NCBI GenBank assembly: GCA_035292445.1
Contig: DATDQB010000021.1
Span: 1-57,391 of the forward strand
Origin: Candidatus Omnitrophota bacterium
Lineage (GTDB): Bacteria; Omnitrophota; Gorgyraeia; Zapsychrales; Zapsychraceae
Length of the DNA: 57,391 bases
Direction of reading: 5' to 3'
Made by a program: the position numbers and the translations under genes. How positions within the stretch are numbered: position 1 is the stretch's first letter; each line of letters opens with the position of its first letter. The notes under the pieces were generated by a model. That model was not told the origin of the DNA, did not search any database, and was given only the letters and a program-made list of their open reading frames with translations. Positions 2,315 through 55,292 of this stretch are shown here, piece by piece.

Positions 2315-3973
2315 ATGGAAAGAACATTTGAACCAAAACTTATTTCTGTTTTAAAAGAAGGTTATACGCCACAGCTATTGGTTAAAGACCTGATCGCCGG
2401 AATTATCGTAGGCATCGTGGCGCTGCCGCTTTCGATCGCCTTTGCGATCGCATCCGGTGTCAAGCCCGAGCAGGGGTTGATTACGGCGGTTGTTGCCGGC
2501 TTTTTGATCTCGGCGTTGAGCGGAAGCCGTTTTCAGATCGGCGGGCCCACAGGGGCCTTCATCGTCATTGTTTATGACATCGTGCAAAAGTACGGTTACG
2601 ATGGGTTGGCAGTGGCCACTGTCATGGCGGGGGTATTGCTCATCGTGATGGGCCTCGCCCGCATGGGCGATGTCATTAAGTTCATTCCCTATCCGGTGAC
2701 GGTCGGTTTCACCAGCGGCATCGCCTTGATCATTTTTACCACCCAGATCCATGATTTTCTCGGGTTACGGCTAATGCATACCCCCGAACATTTTATCGAT
2801 AAATGGCTGATCTATCTGCAGCATCTCGCGCATGTTGATGGGGCGGCGATAAGTTTGGGAGTCGTCACCATTTTGCTTATTATTTACTTGCCGCGGCTGA
2901 CGCACCATGTACCGGCTGCGTTGGTTGCGATTATCCTGACGACCGTTGCCGTAAATATTTTCCATCTTCCCGTTGATACGATCGGCAGCCGTTTCGGTGC
3001 GGTAAGTAACAGTTTTACCCCGCCTCGCTTTCCTTCCATCAACCTGGATCTTTTGATGAAAATGTCCTCTCCGGCGCTAACGATCGCGCTTTTGGCCGGC
3101 ATCGAATCGTTGCTTTCGGCGGTCGTTGCCGACGGGATGACAGGCCGGCGCCACCGCTCCAACATGGAGCTGGTGGCCCAGGGGGTGGCTAATATCGTTT
3201 CTCCTCTTTGGGGCGGTATCCCGGCGACCGGCGCTATCGCCCGCACCGCGACCAACATTAAATTGGGAGGCGCAACGCCCGTTGCCGGCATCATCCATGC
3301 GGCTACCGTTCTTTTTATCTTTCTTTTCTTCGCGCCTTTTGCGGCCATGATCCCCATGGCGACATTGGCGGGGATATTGATCATGGTGGCCTATCATATG
3401 AGCGAATGGAAGTTGTTCGCCAAATTATTGCGCAGCCCTAAAAGCGATATCCTTGTTTTATTGACGACCTTTTTACTGACCGTGTTGGTGGATCTGACGG
3501 TGGCCATTGAAGTGGGTGTTGTTTTGGCCGCGTTCTTATTTATGCGCCGCATGGTGGCCGTCACCCAGGTGGGTTTTATTTCAGCGTCTGATGAAGAAGA
3601 AGGGGGGGACGCCATGGCCACGTTTAGAAAGAATATTCCGGAGGGCGTTGAAGTGTTCGAGATCAACGGGCCGTTTTTCTTCGGCGCGGCGGATAAGTTC
3701 CGGGATACCATGCGCGAGTTGGAGGAGCCGCCTCAAGTATTGATCTTGCGCATGCGCTTTGTTCCGGCGATGGATGCTACCGGTCTTCGGGCGCTGGAGG
3801 ATCTGATCGAAAAGTGCGAAAAAGATAAAGTCCGCGTCATCCTTTCGGGGCTACAGGCCCAGCCCAAAAAAGTTTTGACCGTCAACGGCTTGTTGCAGCG
3901 CATCGGCAAAGATAATATTTGCGTCGATATAGATGAAGCGCTGTTGCGTTCCAAGCAAGTGTTGAAAAAATAA
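2315..3973 (+). CDS. SulP (SLC26) family anion permease with C-terminal STAS domain
   Basis: DLIAGIIVGIVALPLSIAFAIASG, GGSRFQIGGPTG-type motif, and a STAS-like C-terminus (GPFFFGAA, MDATGLRAL). Confidence 0.93.
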   Translation: MERTFEPKLISVLKEGYTPQLLVKDLIAGIIVGIVALPLSIAFAIASGVKPEQGLITAVVAGFLISALSGSRFQIGGPTGAFIVIVYDIVQKYGYDGLAVATVMAGVLLIVMGLARMGDVIKFIPYPVTVGFTSGIALIIFTTQIHDFLGLRLMHTPEHFIDKWLIYLQHLAHVDGAAISLGVVTILLIIYLPRLTHHVPAALVAIILTTVAVNIFHLPVDTIGSRFGAVSNSFTPPRFPSINLDLLMKMSSPALTIALLAGIESLLSAVVADGMTGRRHRSNMELVAQGVANIVSPLWGGIPATGAIARTATNIKLGGATPVAGIIHAATVLFIFLFFAPFAAMIPMATLAGILIMVAYHMSEWKLFAKLLRSPKSDILVLLTTFLLTVLVDLTVAIEVGVVLAAFLFMRRMVAVTQVGFISASDEEEGGDAMATFRKNIPEGVEVFEINGPFFFGAADKFRDTMRELEEPPQVLILRMRFVPAMDATGLRALEDLIEKCEKDKVRVILSGLQAQPKKVLTVNGLLQRIGKDNICVDIDEALLRSKQVLKK

Positions 3974-4036
3974 TCATCCTTCATATAATTCAATCCCTTT
4001 GTTTATCTTCCCGCCCATCCTGATATAATACAATTA

Positions 4037-5251
4037 ATGTTTCCGAAAAATTTCCTATGGGGAGCGACCACCTCCAGCCATCAAATTGAGGGCTCCAATT
4101 TCAATAACGATTGGTGGGAGTGGGAACAAAAGGGGCGCACCAAAGACCCTTCGGGGGACGCCTGCCGTTCGTATACACTTTACGAAAAAGATTTCGATCT
4201 TGCCCAACAGCTCAACCACAACGCCCATCGGCTTTCCATCGAATGGAGCCGCATCGAGCCTGCTGAAGGCAAGATCAACCAGGAGGAGCTGCGGCATTAC
4301 AAGAAGGTGATAGCAGTCCTCAAAGCCCGTGGGATAGAGCCGATTGTGACGGTCCATCATTTCACCAACCCGGGCTGGTTCAGTTATCTCGGCGGTTGGT
4401 TAAACGATAGAGCGCATAAATATTTTTCTTTTTTCATCGATACGCTTACCGAATGTTTTAAAGATGATGTGCGTTATTGGATCACCATCAATGAGCCTAT
4501 GGTGCTCGCCTGGCATAGTTATCATTTGGGCGTCTGGCCGCCGGGAGAGAAATCTTTCCTGAAAATGTGGCGGGCGCTCAACAATATGCTCAAAGCCCAT
4601 AATATCGCTTACCAAAAGATCCATAAGGTTTATCAAAAACGCACTGCCATCAAGCCGATGGTGGGCATCGCGACCAATTTAAGGCCGTTTTATGTATGCC
4701 CCAAGACCAACAACATGCCCGTGCATGTGGGGGTATTCTTTCGCCATCGGATGTATAACATGTATTCGTTGGATAAGATCAAGCGGCATATGGATTTCAT
4801 CGGCGTCAATTATTACGAAGGGGAATATAACAGCAGCGACCCGGAATTGAAGTTGCCCTATTTCGGCGGCAATTGCACGTACCTTCACGGGCATAACCCG
4901 CACGCCAATCAGCTGGGCTGGCATTTTGATCCCAACGGGCTGTATGAAACGATGAAGTGGCTCAAAAAATATAAACGCCCCATTTTCATCACCGAAAACG
5001 GCACTTGCGAAGAAGATGACAGCTGGCGCATCAAATTTATCGATGAACACCTAAAAAGGGTGGAGAAGGCCATCGCAGAGGGCATCAATGTCATAGGGTA
5101 CCTTCATTGGTCGCTGTTGGACAATTTCGAGTGGCATCACGGGTTCGCTCCGCGTTTCGGCTTGATCGAGGTGGACTATAAGACCTATGAGCGGCGCATT
5201 AAACCAAGCGCGCTGCATCTGGCCCGGATCATTAAAGCAGGTAAAGTGTGA
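4037..5251 (+). CDS. Glycoside hydrolase family 1 (beta-glucosidase-like)
   Basis: FLWGATTSSHQIEG, acid/base motif TINEP, nucleophile motif FITENG, WSLLDNFEW. Confidence 0.93.
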   Translation: MFPKNFLWGATTSSHQIEGSNFNNDWWEWEQKGRTKDPSGDACRSYTLYEKDFDLAQQLNHNAHRLSIEWSRIEPAEGKINQEELRHYKKVIAVLKARGIEPIVTVHHFTNPGWFSYLGGWLNDRAHKYFSFFIDTLTECFKDDVRYWITINEPMVLAWHSYHLGVWPPGEKSFLKMWRALNNMLKAHNIAYQKIHKVYQKRTAIKPMVGIATNLRPFYVCPKTNNMPVHVGVFFRHRMYNMYSLDKIKRHMDFIGVNYYEGEYNSSDPELKLPYFGGNCTYLHGHNPHANQLGWHFDPNGLYETMKWLKKYKRPIFITENGTCEEDDSWRIKFIDEHLKRVEKAIAEGINVIGYLHWSLLDNFEWHHGFAPRFGLIEVDYKTYERRIKPSALHLARIIKAGKV

Positions 5252-5967
5252 TGAAGCCCAATACGGGGGAGTTTATCACCTTTGGAGCGGCGCATATCGC
5301 CGCTTTAAGTCTCATTCTTGTGGTTGCCTTGATATTGGTTTTTTTGGCGCGTTTTGAGAAAGCCAAAGAATTGATCAAGCCTGTCCGTTATACGTTGGCC
5401 GCTGTTTTAATCGGCAACGAGTTGATCTATATCGTCGGCCTTTTGGCAAAAGGATTATGGACGTACAAATGGGGCTTGCCTTTACAATTGTGCGACTTGG
5501 CGATCTTCGCGGTCGTGTTTTCTCTTATAAGGCATAACCAGTTTATCTGGGAGATCGCTTATTTTTGGGGATTGGGCGGCACGCTGCAGGCGCTTTTAAC
5601 GCCGGATCTGCGCGTCGGTTTTCCCGATTATATATTTTTTAAATTTTTCCTGACGCACGGATGTATCATCATCGGCGTTTTTTTATTGGCCGCGGGTATT
5701 CAAAGGCCCATCTTTTCCAGATCCGTCAGGCGGATCTTTATCGTGACGAACGTGTATGCCGGCTTTATCGCTTTGTTTAATTGGCTGTTTGATGCCAATT
5801 ACCTTTATCTGTGCCGCAAACCCACCCAGCCGTCGGCCCTTGATTTCTTCGGGCCCTGGCCGGTTTATTTGCTTGGGCTTGAGCTGATGTTGATCGTTTC
5901 CTTAATGATTTATTATTCGCCTTATTATTTTCTGGCCCAAAAGCGCGGAGTCGGCCAGCCTCTTTAA
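5248..5967 (+). CDS. TIGR02206 / YwaF-like integral membrane protein
   Basis: LPLQLCD, YFWGLGGTLQALLTPD, FFLTHG, NYLYLCRKP and GPWPVY motifs. Confidence 0.82.
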   Translation: MMKPNTGEFITFGAAHIAALSLILVVALILVFLARFEKAKELIKPVRYTLAAVLIGNELIYIVGLLAKGLWTYKWGLPLQLCDLAIFAVVFSLIRHNQFIWEIAYFWGLGGTLQALLTPDLRVGFPDYIFFKFFLTHGCIIIGVFLLAAGIQRPIFSRSVRRIFIVTNVYAGFIALFNWLFDANYLYLCRKPTQPSALDFFGPWPVYLLGLELMLIVSLMIYYSPYYFLAQKRGVGQPL

Positions 5968-20612: not shown

Positions 20613-20684
20613 GTCCCTGTAGCTCAACGGATAGAGCGCTAGCCTCCGGAGCTGGAAGTACAGGTTCGATTCCTGTCAGGGACG
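20613..20684 (+). tRNA. tRNA-Arg (anticodon CCG)
   Basis: Cloverleaf: acceptor GTCCCTG/CAGGGAC, D arm GCTC/GAGC, anticodon arm CTAGC-CTCCGGA-GCTGG, T arm ACAGG-TTCGATT-CCTGT. CCA not encoded. Confidence 0.95.
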
Positions 20685-39987: not shown

Positions 39988-40062
39988 TGCCCTGTCGTCT
40001 AACAGGTAGGACATGAGAATCTGGATCTCAGTATCTTGGTTCGATTCCAAGCGGGGCAGCCA
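39988..40062 (+). tRNA. tRNA-Gln (anticodon CTG), CCA encoded
   Basis: Acceptor TGCCCTG/CGGGGCA (U1-A72), D arm GTCT/GGAC, anticodon arm TGAGA-ATCTGGA-TCTCA, T arm CTTGG-TTCGATT-CCAAG. Confidence 0.93.
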
Positions 40063-40456: not shown

Positions 40457-40491
40457 AGAGATCCATAAATTAGTTATAATTAAACTTGGAA

Positions 40492-40545
40492 GGCGATGAG
40501 GTTCGCCAAAACCACCCGGCAATAATGCGGGATGATAACCTCTAC
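40492..40545 (+). ncRNA. Fluoride riboswitch (crcB motif)
   Basis: GGCGATGAGGTTCGCC P1 followed by TGATAACCTCTAC pseudoknot partner, matching the crcB consensus GGCGAUG..GUUCGCC...UGAUGACUUCUAC. Confidence 0.88.
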
Positions 40546-40568
40546 TGAAAAAACGGTAGAGGTTTTTT
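40537..40568 (+). terminator. Riboswitch expression-platform terminator
   Basis: AACCTCTAC/GTAGAGGTT stem plus TTTTTT, overlapping the aptamer 3' strand. Confidence 0.82.
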
Positions 40569-47808: not shown

Positions 47809-48309
47809 ATGTCTGAAAAAAACAGAAAATTTCTTCGTTTGAAGGGTTATGATTATTCGCAATGCGGGTATTATTTTGTTACCGTTTGTACCAAAGGCCG
47901 TGTGGAATGGTTTGGTAATATTAGGGGTGACAAAATGGAATTGAATGAATACGGCAAAATCGTAAATGATGCCTGGTATTGGTTGGAAAATCAATATGAA
48001 TATGTTTCATTGGATGAATTTATTATTATGCCGAATCATATTCATGGGATTATCTGTATAGATGATTGTAGGGGCGGTTCGCGAACCGCCCCTACGATAA
48101 AATCAATAGGACGATTGGTCGGTGCGTTTAAAACGGTATCCACAAAACAAATTAACCAGGTGCGTAATACGCCAGCCATGCAATTATGGCAACGATCATT
48201 TTTTGATCATATTATCCGCAATGAGGTATCATTACAGCGCATAAGAGAATACATCCGTTCCAATCTAATTATGTGGGCCGAAGATAAAGAGAATCCAGGA
48301 GAGGTATAA
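47809..48309 (+). mobile_element. REP-associated tyrosine transposase (IS200-like Y1 HUH), copy 1
   Basis: LKGYDYS..GYYFVTVC, MPNHIHG (HUH), FKTVS, WQRSFFDHIIRNE and IREYI. Confidence 0.9.
48068..48095. repeat. GTAG-type REP palindrome inside RAYT1
   Basis: Perfect 28-bp palindrome GTAGGGGCGGTTCG/CGAACCGCCCCTAC. Confidence 0.9.
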
Positions 48310-48564: not shown

Positions 48565-49080
48565 ATGTCTTCAAGCAGCATCTCAACAGAAATTATCACC
48601 AACAAGATCTTCATCATTAGGGGCCAGAAAGTAATGCTCGATCGCGATCTGGCGGAGCTTTATGGTGTTGATACAAAACAACTCAAAAGAGCAGTTAAAA
48701 GAAATATAGCCCGCTTCCCGGAAGATTTTATGTTCGAATTAACACAGCAAGAGGACAACACTTTAAGGTACCAATTTGGCACCTTAAAAAGAGGTGAACA
48801 TACCAAATATTTGCCTTATGTTTTTACCGAGCAAGGGGTGGCCATGCTCTCAAGCGTTTTACGCTCAACGCGGGCGGTCCAGGTCAATATCGCCATCATG
48901 CGGGCGTTTGTCAGGTTGCGCGATATGCTTTCGTTGCACAAAGAGCTGGCGGTGAAGCTAAAGGAATTGGAGCGAAAGGTTGAGGGAAATACGGGGGCCA
49001 TACGTGATATTTTTAAAGTGCTTGAGTGGCTGAGGAAGGAAGAGGAGAAGCCTAAGGGGAAGATAGGGTTTCATCCATGA
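48565..49080 (+). CDS. ORF6N domain DNA-binding protein
   Basis: IRGQKVMLDRDLAELYGV, AVKRNIARFPEDFMFEL, PYVFTEQGVAMLSSVL. Confidence 0.92.
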   Translation: MSSSSISTEIITNKIFIIRGQKVMLDRDLAELYGVDTKQLKRAVKRNIARFPEDFMFELTQQEDNTLRYQFGTLKRGEHTKYLPYVFTEQGVAMLSSVLRSTRAVQVNIAIMRAFVRLRDMLSLHKELAVKLKELERKVEGNTGAIRDIFKVLEWLRKEEEKPKGKIGFHP

Positions 49081-49154
49081 AGTACGCCAATACCATCTGC
49101 ACCTGGCCTGCTGAAGAGCGGTTTCGTGAGCGGCTCGCGAAGTATGGCGAACAC
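49077..49154 (+). pseudogene. radC: 5' fragment of a radC gene (first about 26 codons)
   Basis: TICTWPAEERFRERLAKYGEH matches the RadC N-terminus, then runs into a hairpin element. Confidence 0.7.
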
Positions 49155-49273
49155 GGCGAGCACTTACGCTTACGGAGCGAAGCGAACGTAAGCGTTAGGC
49201 GCAGCCGCCCCGGTGAATTCGTCCGTCCGCTAAATAATGTCTGCGGACGCCCGGGGCATAAAAAGGAGAAATT

Positions 49274-49714
49274 ATGAAAGAAACATATAGAAGCACAATT
49301 TGTAATTGGCCGATTAATGATCGACCACGAGAGCGTTTGGCTAAATACGGAGAACATAATTTATCCAACACTGAACTCCTCGCCATCCTCTTGCGCACCG
49401 GCGTCAAAGGCGAGACCGCCATAGATCTGGCCCGCAAGATCCTTAACAAATTCAAAACCTTCCGCAACATGAGCCACACAGATAGCCGCTTCACCACCCC
49501 CATCATCCGCGAGATCTTCCAAAAGGCGCTGCAGAACTTCGCCACCTCAATCATTTGCGTGCATAATCATCCTTCAGGTATTGCGGCACCAAGCCATGAG
49601 GATAGGGAGTTTACGCGCAAGCTCAAACAGGTGGGAGAGGCGATGCAGATCAGTGTTTTGGATCATATAATTATCGGCAACAACGCGCATTATTCCTTTA
49701 CCGAATCCGTGTAG
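49274..49714 (+). pseudogene. radC: RadC/JAB-domain gene with in-frame internal deletion
   Basis: RPRERLAKYG..LSNTELLAILLRTG joined directly to REIFQKAL...HNHPSG...VLDHIIIG. Only 146 aa; the central region is absent. Confidence 0.72.
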
Positions 49715-49795: not shown

Positions 49796-50110
49796 GTGAG
49801 GATCTTAAAGAACATTCTTCAAGAGAGCGAGCAATATTACCTGGATATCCGAAAGAAAATTCGGCAGAGACTTGCCAAACTCTCCGGAGGAAGCGTCAAA
49901 AAACGGGTCATATCCGGTAAAATATATTATTATCTGCAGGTCAGGCAAGGGAAAAAGGTCGTCCATAAATATCTGGGCAAGAAAAAGCCTGAAGTACTCA
50001 TCAAAGAGATCGAAGAGCGGATCATGTTAAAGCAGGAATTAAAGAAAATTGATGAAGCGTTGAAGCTATTGCACAAAACAAAGGATCGCAAGCGTGGAAA
50101 AGGAAATTAA
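49796..50110 (+). CDS. Small basic hypothetical protein (candidate antitoxin/regulator)
   Basis: AAGGAGG plus GTG start; GSVKKRVISGKIYYYLQ...HKYLG motif with coiled-coil ends; overlaps the next gene. Confidence 0.7.
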   Translation: MRILKNILQESEQYYLDIRKKIRQRLAKLSGGSVKKRVISGKIYYYLQVRQGKKVVHKYLGKKKPEVLIKEIEERIMLKQELKKIDEALKLLHKTKDRKRGKGN

Positions 50111-50780
50111 ACGAATATTGAAAGTCTTTGAGAAGCATGGCTTGTTCGAAGAAGGCATTCTTCTCATCGGCAGCTGGTGCTTTCAGCTTTATCAAAAACA
50201 CCTCGATGTTCCTGCGTTCCCGTTGTTGACGCAGGATATAGATTTCCTGATTCCCAATCCGTATAAAGGCAAAATAGACAATGAGTTTATTGATGATCTA
50301 AAAGCGCTTGGATTCATGGCCGAGCACCGCAGAGACGGCTCGCTGTATTTATGGAATGCCGAGCTCAAGATCGAATTTATTACGCCGGAGAAAGGGAGGG
50401 GCGTGGATCGGGCTATCCTTATTAAGAATCTGGGATTCCGGGCCATTCCCTTGAGATTCGTGAACCTCTTATTGGATGGTTTTATCAGTATCAACGATGA
50501 CGGTGTACGCATATCCGTGCCAAAGCCGATCAATTTTTGTCTTCATAAGATCCTGATTATCAGCCGCCGCAGGAATACGGCCAAAGCGTTGAAGGATCTA
50601 CAGCATGCGGTTCATACCTTTAGTAAAGTCGATCATCAGGAGTTCCTCAAAGCCTTTAAAAAATTACCCCGCAAATGGCAATTAACGATCGAGCGCACTT
50701 TAATTAAATTCAAGTCGCAAGATCCTCTCTTGGAAGACCAGATCGAAAGAATGCTAGTTACCCTACAAACCACCAAATAA
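50094..50780 (+). CDS. GSU2403-family nucleotidyltransferase-fold protein
   Basis: LLIGSWC, TQDIDFL, IEFITP, PLRFVNLL, FCLHKILIS.RR and KALKD. Confidence 0.78.
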   Translation: MEKEIKRILKVFEKHGLFEEGILLIGSWCFQLYQKHLDVPAFPLLTQDIDFLIPNPYKGKIDNEFIDDLKALGFMAEHRRDGSLYLWNAELKIEFITPEKGRGVDRAILIKNLGFRAIPLRFVNLLLDGFISINDDGVRISVPKPINFCLHKILIISRRRNTAKALKDLQHAVHTFSKVDHQEFLKAFKKLPRKWQLTIERTLIKFKSQDPLLEDQIERMLVTLQTTK

Positions 50781-50822
50781 TATCACTTGTAAGGTAAAAT
50801 AACCGGTTAACTGCCGCTTCAG

Positions 50823-50968
50823 TCTGATCCCCTGATATCCTTCAACCTGATGCCCCGATAACCCGATGACCTTGAAGTTTGTGTCTTGCCCCTCGCATGC
50901 GCTCGGGGTTCTCGCGAGGAGTACCGAGCGGAACGCGAGGTATGTCCTGTGTCTTGTGACTTGTGTCT
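50823..50968. repeat. Degenerate YGATNNCC octamer and TGTGWCT heptamer arrays interrupted by a palindrome
   Basis: About 5 octamers at 50823-50868; TGTGTCT at 50880, 50948 and 50962, TGTGACT at 50955; CCTCGC/GCGAGG hairpin at 50891-50940. Confidence 0.65.
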
Positions 50969-51121
50969 TTTCCAATGGTAGAAAACTGTCAGCCAAACGC
51001 CCCCTCAACCCCCGTGAAGTCTTACCTTTATATAAAAAAATTACTATTAGATTAAGACGAACGGCCCCAAAGTGCGAGCGTAGCGAGCATTTGGGGGGTG
51101 AGCACTCCCCGAAGCCGAAAG

Positions 51122-51308
51122 TTGACAAACTTTACTCTATAACGTATAGTTTTATTCAATTCCCCCCAACATATCCGCTCGATTTCTAAACGAGCCCCGC
51201 TTTTTGCTTTCGCAAGAAAGTAGCGGGGCGAGTTAACCCCGGTGAATTCGTCCCGCCTTCTCTAAGGTGGCATGGGACGTCCGGGGCCCGCTAACACAAA
51301 GGGGGAAT
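51122..51308 (+). promoter_or_regulatory. Island promoter plus leader module, copy 4, split by an about 100-bp two-hairpin insert
   Basis: TTGACA (51122), 17-bp spacer, TATAGT (51145), TTCAATTCCCCCCAA, CCGCTCGAT (51175), insert, CCCGCTAACACAAAGGGGG (51287-51305), then ATG 51309. Confidence 0.8.
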
Positions 51309-51776
51309 ATGCCGCATCAAATTGATCAGTCAGGAAAAATTGAGGCAACAAGCAAGAACACCATTTTGTGTCTGTCGAATGATGAATGGATTGCCGTTAA
51401 GATAGAAGCGAAAGCCAAAAGGCAATTACAAGAGATCTTCCGTAGAAATGGGCAACCGAGGAATTTTGTCCTTTTTACCTTTTCTGCTGGGCTAGCCATT
51501 TTACTTGATAGAACTAAGCATATTTCCAGAATTATGGTGGATCAGGAATATTATGGGAAGGAAGCTGTTATCAAGAACATTGTTCTTAAAATGTTGAAGC
51601 ACCGTGAGGGACCGTTAGAAATTAATTTTGGTAATATTGGTAAGAAAGCGTTGGCGCATCATCGGGCTTATGCGGTGGCAACGGGAAGGCTTAAAGCATC
51701 CTATACGGTTGGATTGAAAGAGTTGTATTATAAAATAAAAATGACCGAGGTCGGTAAACGACTGAAGAACGCTTAA
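51309..51776 (+). CDS. Divergent DUF3800-like / RNase H-fold protein
   Basis: N-terminal IDQSG (compare the DUF3800 xDESG motif), IMVDQEY, and C-terminal AHHRAY in the position of the ADxxA helix. 155 aa. Confidence 0.55.
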   Translation: MPHQIDQSGKIEATSKNTILCLSNDEWIAVKIEAKAKRQLQEIFRRNGQPRNFVLFTFSAGLAILLDRTKHISRIMVDQEYYGKEAVIKNIVLKMLKHREGPLEINFGNIGKKALAHHRAYAVATGRLKASYTVGLKELYYKIKMTEVGKRLKNA

Positions 51777-51817
51777 GCCTCCGGTTGAAACGGAGTGGGT
51801 CGGCGTTCACTCGGTCA
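51733..51817 (-). ncRNA. Structured RNA overlapping the 3' end of the DUF3800-like gene
   Basis: TGACCGAG/CTCGGTCA closing stem, GTCG/CGAC, GAACGC/GCGTTC and CTCCG/CGGAG; minus-strand U tract (AAATAAAAA on +). Confidence 0.68.
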
Positions 51818-51841
51818 AATAATTAAATCTTTTTTAATAGC

Positions 51842-51929
51842 GAGAGGGAGTAACCTTCGGACGCAACCTAGGTGTGCCCTCTCATCGTGATTCTGCTTAG
51901 AATATAACACAGGCCTTAGGACAAGTCAA
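51842..51929 (-). ncRNA. Putative small RNA transcription unit, copy 2
   Basis: About 70-bp near-identical copy of 48343-48412, with minus-strand TTGACT (51929-51924), 17-bp spacer, TATATT (51906-51901). Confidence 0.68.
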
Positions 51930-51940
51930 ATCCCTTTTCC

Positions 51941-52047
51941 CCGATCCTCTGATAACCTGATCTCCTCCAACCCGATCCCCTGATCCCCCCGATATCCCGA
52001 TATCCTGATATCCTGATATCCTCCGACCTGATTCCCTGATACCCCGA
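51941..52047. repeat. Degenerate octamer tandem repeat (YGATNNCC, about 13 units)
   Basis: cgatcccc tgatcccc cgatatcc cgatatcc tgatatcc tgatatcc ... tgattccc tgataccc. Confidence 0.85.
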
Positions 52048-52142
52048 TGGCCTATAAGTTTTCCCTTCCCAAATCCCGCTCCCACCGCTAAAATACCCCC
52101 ATGCCCCCGTTCGCCCTCAACCCCGCCACCACGCGCTGACAT

Positions 52143-52778
52143 ATGAGAATAATCTTTGCCATTCATGGGATCAGAAGCTCCAAAAAAGATAATTGGGTCC
52201 GTAAGTTTATCGATTTTTCCAAAAAGGATCCGAGATGCAAAGATGATATCTTGGTCCCGCATACATATGGTTATCTCTGGGCGCTTCATTCGGTTAACGC
52301 TATAATAAAGCATCAGCATGTAAAAAGAGTAATGAGGACGCTTCGCGAGCTCACCTCAAAGTATCCGAAGGCGGCGTTGAACATCGTTGGGCACAGTTAC
52401 GGCACGGAACTAAGTTACCAGGCCATTAAGCGAAGCGGCGAAGACGGCAAGCCCCCCATTAAAGTCGACAAATTGATCCTGGTTGCCAGCATTGTCTCCG
52501 CCCACAGGGAGATCCCTTACAAAGACACCTTAAGAGCGAGGAAGCTGAATGAGCTGCATTGTTATTGCAGTTATGAAGACGAAGTTTGCCGGTATAACCC
52601 GTTCGGTCATTCCGGTTGTTTTGGATTTCTAAGACATGTTCATGACCCGATGTGTTATCACAAACCGTTCAAAGACTTAGAGATCTATAACCATCAACAG
52701 AAAGATTTAGAGCATGGCGACTACTTTAAAGGAACAAAGTTTTTTAAGGAGTGGCTTGATATTATTGCAAAAAAATGA
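52143..52778 (+). CDS. Standalone alpha/beta-hydrolase-fold protein
   Basis: IFAIHGI, nucleophile elbow GHSYG, LILVAS, YEDEV and EHGDYF. Confidence 0.75.
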   Translation: MRIIFAIHGIRSSKKDNWVRKFIDFSKKDPRCKDDILVPHTYGYLWALHSVNAIIKHQHVKRVMRTLRELTSKYPKAALNIVGHSYGTELSYQAIKRSGEDGKPPIKVDKLILVASIVSAHREIPYKDTLRARKLNELHCYCSYEDEVCRYNPFGHSGCFGFLRHVHDPMCYHKPFKDLEIYNHQQKDLEHGDYFKGTKFFKEWLDIIAKK

Positions 52779-53108: not shown

Positions 53109-54641
53109 ATGGCCGGTAACGGTATTGGTGATTTAAGTTTCGCTTCAAAGCTTTGGAAAGCGGCGGATAAAATGCGTAATAATATGGATGCCGCTGAATA
53201 TAAGCATGTCGTTTTGGGGCTTATATTCCTGAAATATATTTCTGATGTATTTTTAGAAGTTTTCAATGAACTTCAAAAAGACAAACTTGCTGATTCGGAA
53301 GATATCGATGAATATCGCTCCCGAAATGTCTTCTGGGTCCCGCCTGATGCGCGCTGGTCTTATCTTCAGAAAAACGCCAAACAACCTACCATTGGAAAGA
53401 TAATCGATGACGCGATGGATGCTATTGAGCGCGATAATCCTTCGCTCAAAGGTGTCTTGTCTAAGAACTATGCTCGTCCAGCCCTTGATAAACAGCGCTT
53501 AGGAGAGCTTATTGATCTGATCGGCACGATGGGTTTGGGTGACAAAGAAAACCGGTCAAAAGACCTTTTAGGTCAGGTGTACGAATATTTTCTGGGACAG
53601 TTCGCTGATGCCGAAGGTAAAAAGGGAGGACAGTTTTATACGCCTCGTTGTATTGTCAGGCTTTTAGTTGAAATGCTTGAGCCATATAAGGGCCGTGTAT
53701 TCGACCCTTGCTGCGGCTCGGGAGGCATGTTCGTTCAAAGCGAGAAATTTGTGGAAGCCCACGATGGGCGTGTAGGTGATATCTCTATTTATGGCCAGGA
53801 ATCCAATCAAACCACGTGGCGATTGGCGATGATGAATTTAGCTATTCGCGGCATAGAGGCTAATATTCAGTGGGCGGATTCATTTCATAAAGATCTCCAA
53901 AAGGATTTGAAATCTGATTTTATTATTGCTAATCCTCCTTTCAATGTCAGCGATTGGAAGGGCGAGCTTTTGCGTGATGATCCTCGATGGAAATATGGGA
54001 CGCCACCGGTTGGTAATGCCAACTTCGCCTGGGTCCAACATTTCATTTATCATTTGGCTCCGGCAGGTGTTGCCGGCTTTGTTTTGGCTAATGGGTCAAT
54101 GTCTTCCAACACCTCAGGAGAAGGGGATATCAGAAAAGCTATCATTGAAGCTGATTTAATAGATTGCATGGTGGCATTACCCTCACAACTATTTTACAAC
54201 ACCATGATTCCAGCTTGTCTTTGGTTCATTGCTCGAGATAAGAAGAACCATAAGTTCAGAGACAGACGCGGCAAAACATTGTTTATTGATGCTCGCAATA
54301 TGGGGGAGATGATCGACCGCCGCCACCGTGATCTTACCAATGAAGAGATTCAAAAGATTGCCAAAACTTATCATGCTTGGCGAGGTGAAAAAGGCTGTGG
54401 TAAATATGAAGATATTAAAGGTTTTTGCAATGAAGCCACGTTTGATGATATTCGTAAACATGGGCATATCTTAACGCCTGGAAGATACGTTGGGACTGAG
54501 GATGTGGAAGAGGATGATGAAGTGTTTGAGGAGAAGATGAAGCGATTGACCGGTGAATTGAAAGAACAATTTAAAGAATCAGCCATGCTTGAAAAAGAAA
54601 TACAGAAGAATTTGAAACAAGTTGGTTTTCCGTTGGAGTAA
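53109..54641 (+). CDS. hsdM: Type I restriction-modification DNA methyltransferase subunit M
   Basis: [49 protein letters not shown]. Confidence 0.96.
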
Positions 54642-54647
54642 ACCTGA

Positions 54648-55292
54648 ATGCTTTATTTATATTTAGATGAAAGCGGGGATTTAGGGTTTGATTTTGTTAC
54701 TAAAAAGCCGTCAAAGTATTTTACGTTGAGCGTGCTTGTTGTTAAAGGACAAAAAAATAATCGTGCCATAATTAATACCGTTAAGCATACATTTAAACGT
54801 AAATTACATAAAAAGAAACTGCTTTTAGGGGGCGAATTAAAGGGGAGTAAGGTTTCTTTGGATATTAAGAAATATTTTTATAGGCAAATCGCGAAAATAG
54901 ATTTTAAGATTTATGCCCTTACACTTAATAAGAAGAGGGTTAATCAGAGTTTAGTCAGCGTAAAAGAGCGTCTATATAATTATATTGCCCGTTTGGTTCT
55001 TGACCAAATAGACATTAATAATGCGCATCAAAGGGTAATCTTTATTTTGGATAGAAGTAAAGGAAAACCGGAAATCGCTGACTTCAATAAATACATTTTT
55101 GATCAGATTAAAGGCAGACTTAATCCACAGATTCCTTTAGATATTGTACATAAACTTTCACATGAAATGCCAGGGCTTCAGGCGGCGGATCTTTTTGCGT
55201 GGGGAATCTTTAGGAAGTACGAAAAGCGGGATATGGAATGGTTCAATGTATTTAAAGGGAGTGTTATTTTTGATGACGTATATCTTCCATGA
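54648..55292 (+). CDS. DUF3800 domain protein (RNase H-like fold)
   Basis: YLDESGDLG, ELKGS, ILDRS and GLQAADLFAW. Confidence 0.85.
   Translation: MLYLYLDESGDLGFDFVTKKPSKYFTLSVLVVKGQKNNRAIINTVKHTFKRKLHKKKLLLGGELKGSKVSLDIKKYFYRQIAKIDFKIYALTLNKKRVNQSLVSVKERLYNYIARLVLDQIDINNAHQRVIFILDRSKGKPEIADFNKYIFDQIKGRLNPQIPLDIVHKLSHEMPGLQAADLFAWGIFRKYEKRDMEWFNVFKGSVIFDDVYLP

Follow-up and report, generated by a model that had tools for sequence, protein, structure and literature searches.

Results

Layout of the cassette

The DNA studied here is a stretch of 57,391 nucleotides (nt), called the window below, which comprises positions 1 to 57,391 of contig DATDQB010000021.1 (assembly GCA_035292445.1) from a Candidatus Omnitrophota bacterium. 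It carries a gene for a protein of 155 amino acids (aa) on the plus strand, which meets at its 3' end a structured element that is read as the gene of a small RNA (sRNA) on the minus strand. The comparison of loci described below establishes the pair, at the level of sequence, as an autonomous two-gene cassette with the following parts.

51122..51150, plus strand: candidate promoter of the protein messenger RNA (mRNA), TTGACA-17-TATAGT, 11/12 consensus matches (promoter scan)
51309..51776, plus strand: gene of the 155-aa protein, unclassified family, probably RNase H-like (family search, conservation, AlphaFold2, Foldseek)
51731..51820, minus strand: conserved core of the antisense sRNA (covariance model match of 102.6 bits; covariation; counts of G.U against A.C)
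51733..51741, minus strand: U-tract (UUUUUAUUU) directly after the closing helix P1, predicted intrinsic-terminator tail, read on the plus strand as codons I-K-(M) (U-run in 98/101 relatives; within the 15-mer described below)
51842..51883, minus strand: extra 5' hairpin, GAGAGGGCACACC...CCCTCTC (GAGAGGG...CCCTCTC), between promoter and core (folding)
51901..51929, minus strand: candidate sRNA promoter, TTGACT-17-TATATT with a TG extension, 10/12 consensus matches (family-wide promoter conservation)

The protein gene (N-terminus MPHQIDQSGK) has a Shine-Dalgarno sequence, AAGGGGG, directly 5' of its ATG, and ends with a TAA stop codon at 51774-51776. An earlier reading of the letters of this DNA by a model, the original prediction, had placed here an open reading frame (ORF) starting with IDQSG, and 51309-51776 is confirmed as a real gene, whose large family is reported below. 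A structured leader of ~150 nt is predicted between the mRNA promoter and the ORF, and two strong hairpins (about 51196-51236 and 51238-51286) are seen in this leader, 51157-51308. The leader was considered as a conserved riboswitch-like element and rejected as such, given that its conservation ends with the closest relatives.

The RNA element, 51742-51817, consists of an 8-base-pair closing helix, P1 (TGACCGAG/CTCGGTCA; 51810-51817/51742-51749), around three further helices: a short hairpin, P2 (51750-53/51759-62), then P3 (51767-72/51803-08) and, nested in P3, P4 (51778-83/51791-97), the last two forming a stacked longer arm. A multi-stem fold of this architecture, made of the last codons and the 3' flank, had been predicted, and folding supports it on both strands, with -36.1 kcal/mol on the plus strand (z = -4.7 against shuffles) and -30.2 kcal/mol on the minus strand (z = -4.5). 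The element covers the last 11 codons of the gene, so that 34 nt of the ORF are shared with the RNA helices, or 44 nt when the U-tail is included. The stop codon lies within the internal loop between P3 and P4, where the opposite strand carries the invariant loop motif CUUAAG.

The transcript predicted for the window runs from about 51894 to about 51733, ~160 nt. The covariance model finds a single copy of the RNA in the window, and there is no tandem array of the element, just one convergent copy 3' of the gene. The extra 5' hairpin is nearly identical in the closest relative (locus L082), which has the equivalent promoter TTGACG-17-TATAGT; in these two loci the hairpin and an A-rich linker separate the promoter from P1, whereas in all other loci the hairpin is absent and the promoter abuts P1.

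The 15-mer AAATAAAAATGA[C/G]CG occurs at exactly two places in the window, 51733 and 55292, against an expected count of 0.04, and at both sites it is the complement of the U-rich 3' tail of a minus-strand RNA, just as the original prediction had it. The copy at 55292 marks the boundary between a DUF3800 gene and its DUF3800-V RNA, a second unit that is compared with the cassette below.

The element is a conserved structured RNA

Gene and RNA of the window were compared across 160 fetched loci that encode relatives of the 155-aa protein. A first search of these loci recovered the element in 26 distinct copies, each at the same position, for which RNAalifold predicts the fold proposed by the earlier reader, with compensatory changes in 7/19 pairs. 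When the 26 minus-strand copies were aligned with MAFFT, a 21-pair structure was 99.3% paired, with 8 compensatory pairs, as compared with 21-51% in slid controls. A covariance model (R1, threshold E<5e-4) then gave 106 RNA matches in the 160 loci, every one of them antisense to the protein gene, and 105 of the 106 lie next to the 3' end of a family gene and point towards it; in those 105/106 the predicted sRNA gene overlaps the 3' end of the ORF or the 3' untranslated region on the opposite strand. Among the 101 distinct RNAs, in an alignment fitted to the model and therefore to be read with that caveat, compensatory changes are seen at each of the 21 pairs, the paired share of base-pair cells is 97% (71.8% in shuffles, 28-43% in slid controls) and the covariation score is 0.626 against 0.212, with 0/500 shuffles as high. 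The structure is thus conserved among the homologues of the protein in other loci, a point on which the original prediction had staked its claim.

A second model (R2) adds ~23 loci, and the RNA is detected with at least 77% of the 163 near-complete genes; several of the remaining genes visibly have more divergent versions. All copies have a core composed of P1, P3, the loop CCGACC, P4, the loop CUUAAG, P3', P1' and the U-run, and P2 is found in about half of them. The variable part of the RNA is P4 only, a closed hairpin, and the unpaired loops and junctions show very high sequence conservation across the 101 copies. Taken together, these patterns identify the element as a structured non-coding RNA gene with a predicted promoter and terminator of its own.

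The minus strand carries the RNA gene

Mismatch pattern, promoter and terminator agree with each other, and for this reason the minus strand is read as the functional strand of the element, which would be a separate gene. In the 26 copies, 23 cells would be A.C (or C.A) mismatches on the plus strand but G.U pairs on the minus strand, and a single cell behaves in the opposite way; the 23 cells correspond to 17/26 at one P3 pair, 3/26 in P1 and 3 further cells in P3. A scan for TTGACA-N16-18-TATAAT (cut-off at least 9/12 consensus matches) detected a minus-strand promoter in 89/101 distinct loci, with an exact TTGACA in 65, and the -10 box ends 6-12 nt before the first P1 base in 84/101 loci. 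On the opposite strand, the same stretch attains 9/12 in only 13/106. A U-run (at least 5 U in 8 nt) follows P1 in 98/101; on the plus strand it is an invariant A-run, read as codons I-K-K/M. Judged by these signals, the closing helix and the U-run act as the terminator of the sRNA, and the sigma-70-type promoter is a strong one. The claim that the last codons of the gene double as a structured antisense RNA, with the minus strand as the functional one, is supported by covariation, G.U counts, promoter and U-run alike.

Overlap of the RNA with the end of the reading frame

Measured from the outer P1 base, the ORF ends at different positions across the family, from a gap of 1-13 nt, with the stop in the U-run region, to a full read-through of 73-151 nt, and the 34-nt overlap belongs to the subfamily of the window. 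What is conserved family-wide is the convergence and the abutment of the two genes; the specific coding overlap is a lineage detail.

Several loci separate the fate of the RNA from that of the peptide. A GAG-to-TAG change ends the ORF within the element and leaves the rest of the element intact (L003). In another locus the ORF reads the element in a different frame (...AQKRPRS*; L043). A second complete RNA copy, 5581-5652, lies 150 nt after the first in L005 without an ORF, accompanied by a remnant of the ORF end, and an orphan copy of L002, 2303-2398, ~2.6 kb upstream, has no adjacent family ORF. An extra hairpin inserted in the P2 loop is also an insertion in the protein (L095), and a compensatory change in P2, C-G to U-A, forces an R-to-Q substitution. 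Since the element persists despite a premature stop, a change of frame, a missing ORF and an inserted hairpin that lengthens the protein, the primary constraint is on the RNA sequence and not on the peptide TEVGKRLKNA. There is some residual selection on the peptide as well, because the loop positions vary only synonymously (GGT/GGC, AAA/AAG). The locus is a clean case of dual coding, with the C-terminal peptide of a protein determined by an RNA structure.

In one subfamily (L007, L013, L014, L015, L019, L041; ~5426-5498) the ORF runs through the whole antisense RNA gene. The conserved C-terminal extension of these proteins (...GRLRECLSTLVDAQ...) is the plain translation of the RNA element.

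The protein family and its predicted fold

Among 5.8 billion proteins, 133 relatives of the 155-aa protein were found, most of them exactly 155 aa long; a Pfam domain was found in none of them. Searched with a profile, 1.84 billion cluster representatives yielded 1035 family members at E<=1e-3, of which 644 reach E<=1e-10, and almost all have a length of 145-170 aa. The carriers are mainly Patescibacteria, or candidate phyla radiation (CPR) bacteria (Levy-, Roizman-, Gottesman-, Uhr- and Berkelbacteria, Saccharibacteria and others), together with Chloroflexota and a few other groups, and the pair of protein gene and RNA is present in more than a hundred uncultured bacteria. The protein has no match in Pfam, NCBIfam, PADLOC or PHROGs; a Pfam scan of 81 diverse members gave nothing consistent, and a PDB sequence search with the family profiles returned noise only. 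In these 81 members D6, S8, E12, K37, D78, E80 and Y81 are invariant, and Q7, K10, R45 and H117 nearly so.

AlphaFold2, using a 42-sequence alignment, models the product as a globular alpha/beta protein (pLDDT 93.6, pTM 0.89), unlike a small hydrophobic toxic peptide. In the model the strands and helices follow each other as b1-b2-b3-a-a-b4-a-b5-a; D6 lies on b1, and D78 where b4 ends. A Foldseek search, which had been suggested as a check on the fold, places RNase HI of E. coli, the RNase H domain of HIV reverse transcriptase and RuvC on top in the PDB, and phage RNase H, RuvC and terminase nuclease domains in BFVD; the nature of the matches is compatible with the prediction and their scores are weak throughout (E 0.03 and TM ~0.42 in the PDB, E 1e-3 in BFVD, with probability up to 0.99). 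An RNase H-like fold is probable, not proven. The invariant acidic set D6, E12, D78 and E80, plus H117, suggests a metal-dependent nuclease, and because this D/E/D/E set sits on an RNase H-like scaffold in the model, the protein may well be an active nuclease.

Relation to DUF3800 genes and their RNAs

Eleven unrelated RNA motifs linked to DUF3800 genes, DUF3800-I to -XI, have been described, for which the authors offered 'no specific hypothesis' (Weinberg et al. 2017, PMC5737381), and later papers report that the fold of DUF3800 is that of RNase H and that it is found alongside CRISPR or defence loci. The second unit of the window is of this type.

54648..55292, plus strand: true DUF3800 gene (PF12686, E 1.8e-17, 64.9 bits), between hsdM and hsdS (Pfam, AlphaFold2)
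55297..55426, minus strand: DUF3800-V sRNA, 55297-55396 (Rfam, 74.6 bits), with promoter TTGACA-17-TATACT, 55398-55426

The DUF3800-V sRNA (RF02964) is directed towards the DUF3800 gene and reaches with its U-tail into the stop region of that gene. The original prediction held that the window contains two paralogous systems of protein and RNA. Their likeness is real, given that both units consist of a gene with a convergent sRNA, a sigma-70-type promoter and a U-tract at the stop region; their paralogy is not demonstrated. The further claim of different RNAs in the two units is correct, as the new RNA matches no Rfam DUF3800 motif and the other is DUF3800-V.

By every sequence test the 155-aa protein falls outside DUF3800, which leaves of the proposed RNase H/DUF3800 likeness a compatible fold (AlphaFold2 and the weak Foldseek matches) and the h-D-Q-S-G motif. 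PF12686 matches neither the protein nor any of the 81 diverse relatives at E<=1, BLASTP between the two proteins of the window gives nothing significant (E 0.5), and PADLOC picks up the DUF3800 gene weakly (DUF3800_VII) and the 155-aa protein not at all. An hhalign comparison of the family profile with a DUF3800 profile gave a probability of 0.2% (E 0.31), the latter being narrow (the DUF3800 protein of the window and 34 homologues, all with at least 56% identity), so that distant homology could be missed. The structural models point to different branches of the RNase H superfold: that of the DUF3800 protein (pLDDT 86) strongly matches archaeal RNase HII (E 4e-7, TM 0.55), and that of the 155-aa protein weakly matches RNase HI. 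The first-strand motif is I-D-Q-S-G in the 155-aa protein and L-D-E-S-G in DUF3800. Both proteins have in common a similar first-strand motif and the superfold, which is probable for the 155-aa protein, and homology beyond that is unproven.

The RNAs also differ. In Rfam 15 no family matches window positions 50700-52200, nor positions 3000-4300 of L140, at E<=10 (noise only), and none matches the elements of 19 loci at the gathering score; conversely, R1 and R2 do not match DUF3800-V. The partner of the new RNA is the non-DUF3800 family in 105/106 cases, and DUF3800 genes lie within 5 kb of a family gene in 8/161 sources.

Two of these sources, L022 and L074 (Uhrbacteria), hold islands in which modules of the new family are interleaved with DUF3800 genes with DUF3800-II RNAs (RF02961) and with genes of NYN-domain nucleases. 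There too gene and RNA are convergent and overlap at their 3' ends, the DUF3800 gene at 265-870 with its RNA at 853-922 in L074, and the gene at 4413-5021 with its RNA at 5004-5073 in L022. DUF3800-type and new-family units thus have the same architecture and a tendency to share islands. The internal-loop motif of the new RNA, GCUUAAGC (window 51767-51779), is invariant and palindromic and contains UAA, and the Rfam consensus of DUF3800-V, GGCuuaAGCc (window 55330-55345), has an equivalent hairpin, loop and helix position. Their likeness could reflect a common recognition logic or convergence.

That the 155-aa protein is a highly divergent DUF3800 paralogue and its RNA a twelfth DUF3800-type motif, with two paralogous systems in the window, is possible and on balance somewhat unlikely. 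The proposal draws on the identical layout of gene and RNA in the window and in L022 and L074 (RNA over the 3' end of the gene), on h-D-[EQ]-S-G on the first strand of an RNase H superfold, on the 8 sources in which both kinds of module stand side by side, and on the invariant UUAA of the internal loop, which echoes both the statement that 'UAA is common' in such RNAs (PMC5737381) and the DUF3800-V hairpin. It is opposed by the 81 members without a PF12686 match, by the low hhalign probability (with the narrow profile leaving room for a distant relationship), by the RNase HI-like as against RNase HII-like neighbours and by the mutual silence of the RNA models. The description 'analogous system' is justified, and 'paralogous DUF3800 variant' goes further than these comparisons do. 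This question is orthogonal to that of the mechanism.

Genomic context and flanking repeats

The neighbours of the cassette vary by locus and are often housekeeping genes, such as those of glycosyltransferases, SAM synthetase, GAPDH and UvrD. No partner protein is conserved across loci, which indicates that the pair is self-contained. In the window, the cassette lies between two repeats.

50824..50880, plus strand: left copy of a 57-nt direct repeat, rich in CCYGAT, on either side of the cassette (82% identical to the right copy)
52005..52061, plus strand: right copy of the same repeat (82% identical to the left copy)

The repeat occurs at only these two places within the 57-kb window. When 84 cassettes were compared with 84 mismatched controls, a direct repeat in both flanks stronger than in any control was found in 30/84, against 0/84. 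These repeats are locus-specific and of variable length, 15-187 nt, and some of them correspond to tandem modules (L008, L016, L100). Two cases are especially clear. In L012 the 42 nt before a host ATG (promoter and 5' untranslated region) are duplicated (4959-5000 / 5585-5626), and the ORF of the cassette starts at the ATG of the first copy. In L095 a 73-nt duplication (3903-3975 / 4550-4621) includes the first 17 codons of a host gene. Such long flanking duplications suggest a promoter-capturing insertion.

No inverted repeats of at least 14 nt were found at 50700-52300 of the window. An empty site, sought via the neighbouring NTP_transf_8 protein, was not recovered; short contigs follow the filled path, and two of them, with the left neighbour gene, break off within the cassette at 26 and 58 nt beyond the left copy of the repeat. 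A search of viral contigs with the DNA pattern found nothing, and blastn of the whole cassette against plasmids gave no match.

The tandem cassettes of L008 (5001-5536 and 6004-6554) carry divergent proteins and RNAs. An upstream element of 53 nt (CCCTCTCCGGGCTGCTGGTGAATTTTTCCTCAGAAGGAAA...) and an inter-module repeat of 187 nt are common to both.

The island of the window comprises ORF6N, RadC, a DUF6788/NTP_transf_8 pair, an alpha/beta hydrolase and a type I restriction-modification operon that is interrupted by the inserted DUF3800/DUF3800-V unit and a Y1 transposase. The operon spans 53109-57312, with hsdM at 53109-54641 followed by the DUF3800 gene, the DUF3800-V RNA and the gene of an IS200-like Y1 transposase (55518-56081), which overlaps the start of hsdS (about 56059-57312). 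Another Y1_Tnp gene is found at about 47809-48309. The genes of DUF6788 (104 aa) and of a GSU2403-type nucleotidyltransferase (NTP_transf_8, 228 aa), at 49796-50780, overlap each other and have a toxin-antitoxin-style look; RadC and the ORF6N protein are encoded just upstream of them, 48565-49714. The Rfam scan of the window also returned a fluoride riboswitch (40483-40551, plus strand, 40.8 bits) and two tRNA genes (20613-20684 and 39988-40059, plus strand).

Discussion

Our tentative interpretation of the cassette is that of a self-contained module composed of a nuclease and an RNA that resembles an antitoxin. The sRNA would keep the nuclease in check, and loss of the RNA would free it. Two routes may be envisaged, and both may operate. 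In the first, known from type I systems with a 3' overlap, the sRNA would pair in cis with the mRNA of the nuclease at its 3' end; the antisense geometry favours this route, by analogy with txpA/RatA and bsrG/SR4. In the second, it would bind the protein directly through the invariant loops CCGACC and CUUAAG, as in type III systems, and the conservation of these loops favours this one. The cassette might spread as a selfish or defence-type insert, as suggested by the lack of fixed neighbours, the tandem copies, the flanking target duplications and the co-location with DUF3800/RNA and NYN modules.

Pairing in trans with the ribosome-binding region of the mRNA of the same cassette is unsupported, since cognate duplexes have an energy of -20.9 and non-cognate ones of -20.3 (p = 0.10). 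A role of the sRNA as a guide to the insertion site was likewise rejected, with a cognate mean rank of 10.55 of 20 against the flanking repeats. The lack of cognate complementarity to either region argues against trans-pairing or guide functions.

Several points weigh against a nuclease held in check by its RNA, the result for the ribosome-binding region being one of them. All the evidence for the cassette is computational, the 101-sequence alignment behind the larger covariation figures was fitted to the covariance model, and the RNase H-like assignment is based on weak Foldseek scores. The extent of the overlap between ORF and RNA is not conserved. Type I toxins are small membrane peptides and not enzymes of 150 aa, and type III antitoxin RNAs are tandem repeats located upstream on the same strand. 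Plain antisense control, for its part, needs no strongly conserved loops and junctions. The family was not found by tblastn in phage and plasmid collections and is also missed by PADLOC, so that a possible role in defence is indicated by the island context and by nothing else.

An alternative is that the RNA is a positive cofactor in a stable ribonucleoprotein (RNP) with the RNase H-fold enzyme, as a scaffold, an activator or a specificity subunit. Proteins of RNase H/RuvC fold with structured RNAs have precedents in TnpB and IscB with their omega RNA and in IS110 with its bridge RNA, and both the conservation of unpaired loops and junctions in 101 copies and the strict linkage to the protein gene speak for such a particle. 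We consider it unlikely, given that the RNA has no variable single-stranded segment that could act as a guide (P4, its variable part, is closed), that neither the flanking repeats nor the mRNA leader showed cognate complementarity, and that a convergent overlapping layout is typical of negative antisense control.

The flanking duplications raise the question of whether the cassette is a tiny transposable element, in which the protein would be a transposase of DDE/RuvC type and the sRNA would throttle its expression, like RNA-OUT of IS10. The excess of direct repeats over controls, the clean target duplications of L012 and L095, the varied contexts with several copies per genome or in tandem, and the conserved D/D/E residues are all compatible with this idea. 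Terminal inverted repeats were not found, however, nor was an empty site recovered; the duplications are long and variable, unlike the target-site duplications made by transposases, and several of them are explained by tandem modules, while a protein of 150 aa is too small to include a DNA-binding domain. A transposon is on these grounds very unlikely. Finally, it is scarcely credible that the structure acts in cis within the protein mRNA (as a 3' stabiliser, a terminator or an autoregulatory site) and is no separate RNA gene, because, even if the plus strand folds well and lies at the 3' end of the mRNA, the A.C (or C.A) cells of that strand are G.U on the other, promoter and U-run are conserved for the minus strand only, with no U-run after the helix on the plus strand, and copies without an ORF are known in L005 and L002.

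To return to the nuclease and its sRNA, a broader proposal can be made. The cassette may represent an undescribed class of mobile protein/RNA elements in which an RNase H-fold enzyme of ~150 aa is combined with one strongly expressed sRNA, either as an RNA-antitoxin or abortive-infection system or as an RNP that promotes its own promoter-capturing insertion, by a mechanism common to the DUF3800, drum and skipping-rope motifs, which it would explain; we regard this as rather unlikely in its full extent. In the literature to 2026 we found neither a functional study of DUF3800, drum or skipping-rope RNAs or of CPR RNA motifs, nor a description of the 155-aa protein family or its RNA.

The cassette offers an independent and simpler example of the DUF3800/RNA design, with a protein outside Pfam and an RNA outside Rfam, and with a rigid geometry of convergence, shared terminator and gene overlap. 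This fixed geometry, the compact size of ~0.7-1.1 kb and the clear catalytic candidates make the system experimentally tractable in E. coli, and a positive result obtained there would probably extend to the DUF3800 RNAs. The flanking target duplications, moreover, suggest that small cassettes may enter sites behind host promoters by an unrecognised route.

Transposons encode proteins of RNase H/RuvC fold that act with RNAs, such as TnpB with its omega RNA, which lies over the 3' end of the gene, and the IS110 proteins with their bridge RNA; in IS10, RNA-OUT is an antisense control of the transposase. The present pair resembles TnpB and IS110 in combining a probable RNase H-superfold protein with a structured RNA at or over the end of the gene and in its insert-like character with flanking duplications. 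It differs in that the RNA is antisense and not sense, lacks a variable segment of guide type and is not complementary to the flanks, and in that the protein is two to three times smaller and no terminal inverted repeats were found. Unlike insertion sequences in general, it lacks both these repeats and short target-site duplications of fixed length.

In type III toxin-antitoxin systems, among them ToxIN, CptIN and TenpIN, a structured RNA neutralises a nuclease by direct binding. The cassette would be similar in this respect and as a two-component protein/RNA module of a kind often related to defence. In contrast to type III, its RNA is neither a tandem array, nor upstream on the same strand, nor evidently processed by the protein, and the protein is probably RNase H-like instead of having the Kid/CcdB/ToxN-like fold.

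Type I systems with a 3'-overlapping antisense RNA include txpA/RatA, bsrG/SR4 and par, in which Fst RNA I and RNA II share a terminator. Like them, the cassette has a convergent antisense sRNA with a predicted strong promoter, complementary in its 3' part to the 3' end of the mRNA, and it is a compact, self-contained module scattered through genomes. Type I toxins are hydrophobic peptides of less than 60 aa, whereas the would-be toxin here is a soluble enzyme of 150 aa, and the loops and junctions of the new RNA are conserved far beyond the needs of base pairing.

The closest parallel is that of the DUF3800/RNA pairs. The new protein differs from DUF3800 in having no match to PF12686 by hidden Markov model or by profile-profile comparison and in a model that is RNase HI-like and not RNase HII-like, and the new RNA matches none of the DUF3800 motifs of Rfam. 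[quoted passage not shown] In both kinds of pair the gene of a small protein of the RNase H superfold, a fold that is probable for the new family, is tightly linked to a dedicated structured sRNA, which has a predicted promoter and Rho-independent terminator of its own and a loop that contains UAA; the RNA converges on the 3' end of the gene in the examples examined, and the pairs are found in islands with restriction-modification and nuclease genes. By its sequence, then, the locus appears to work like a DUF3800/RNA pair, built from a protein and an RNA that belong to other families.

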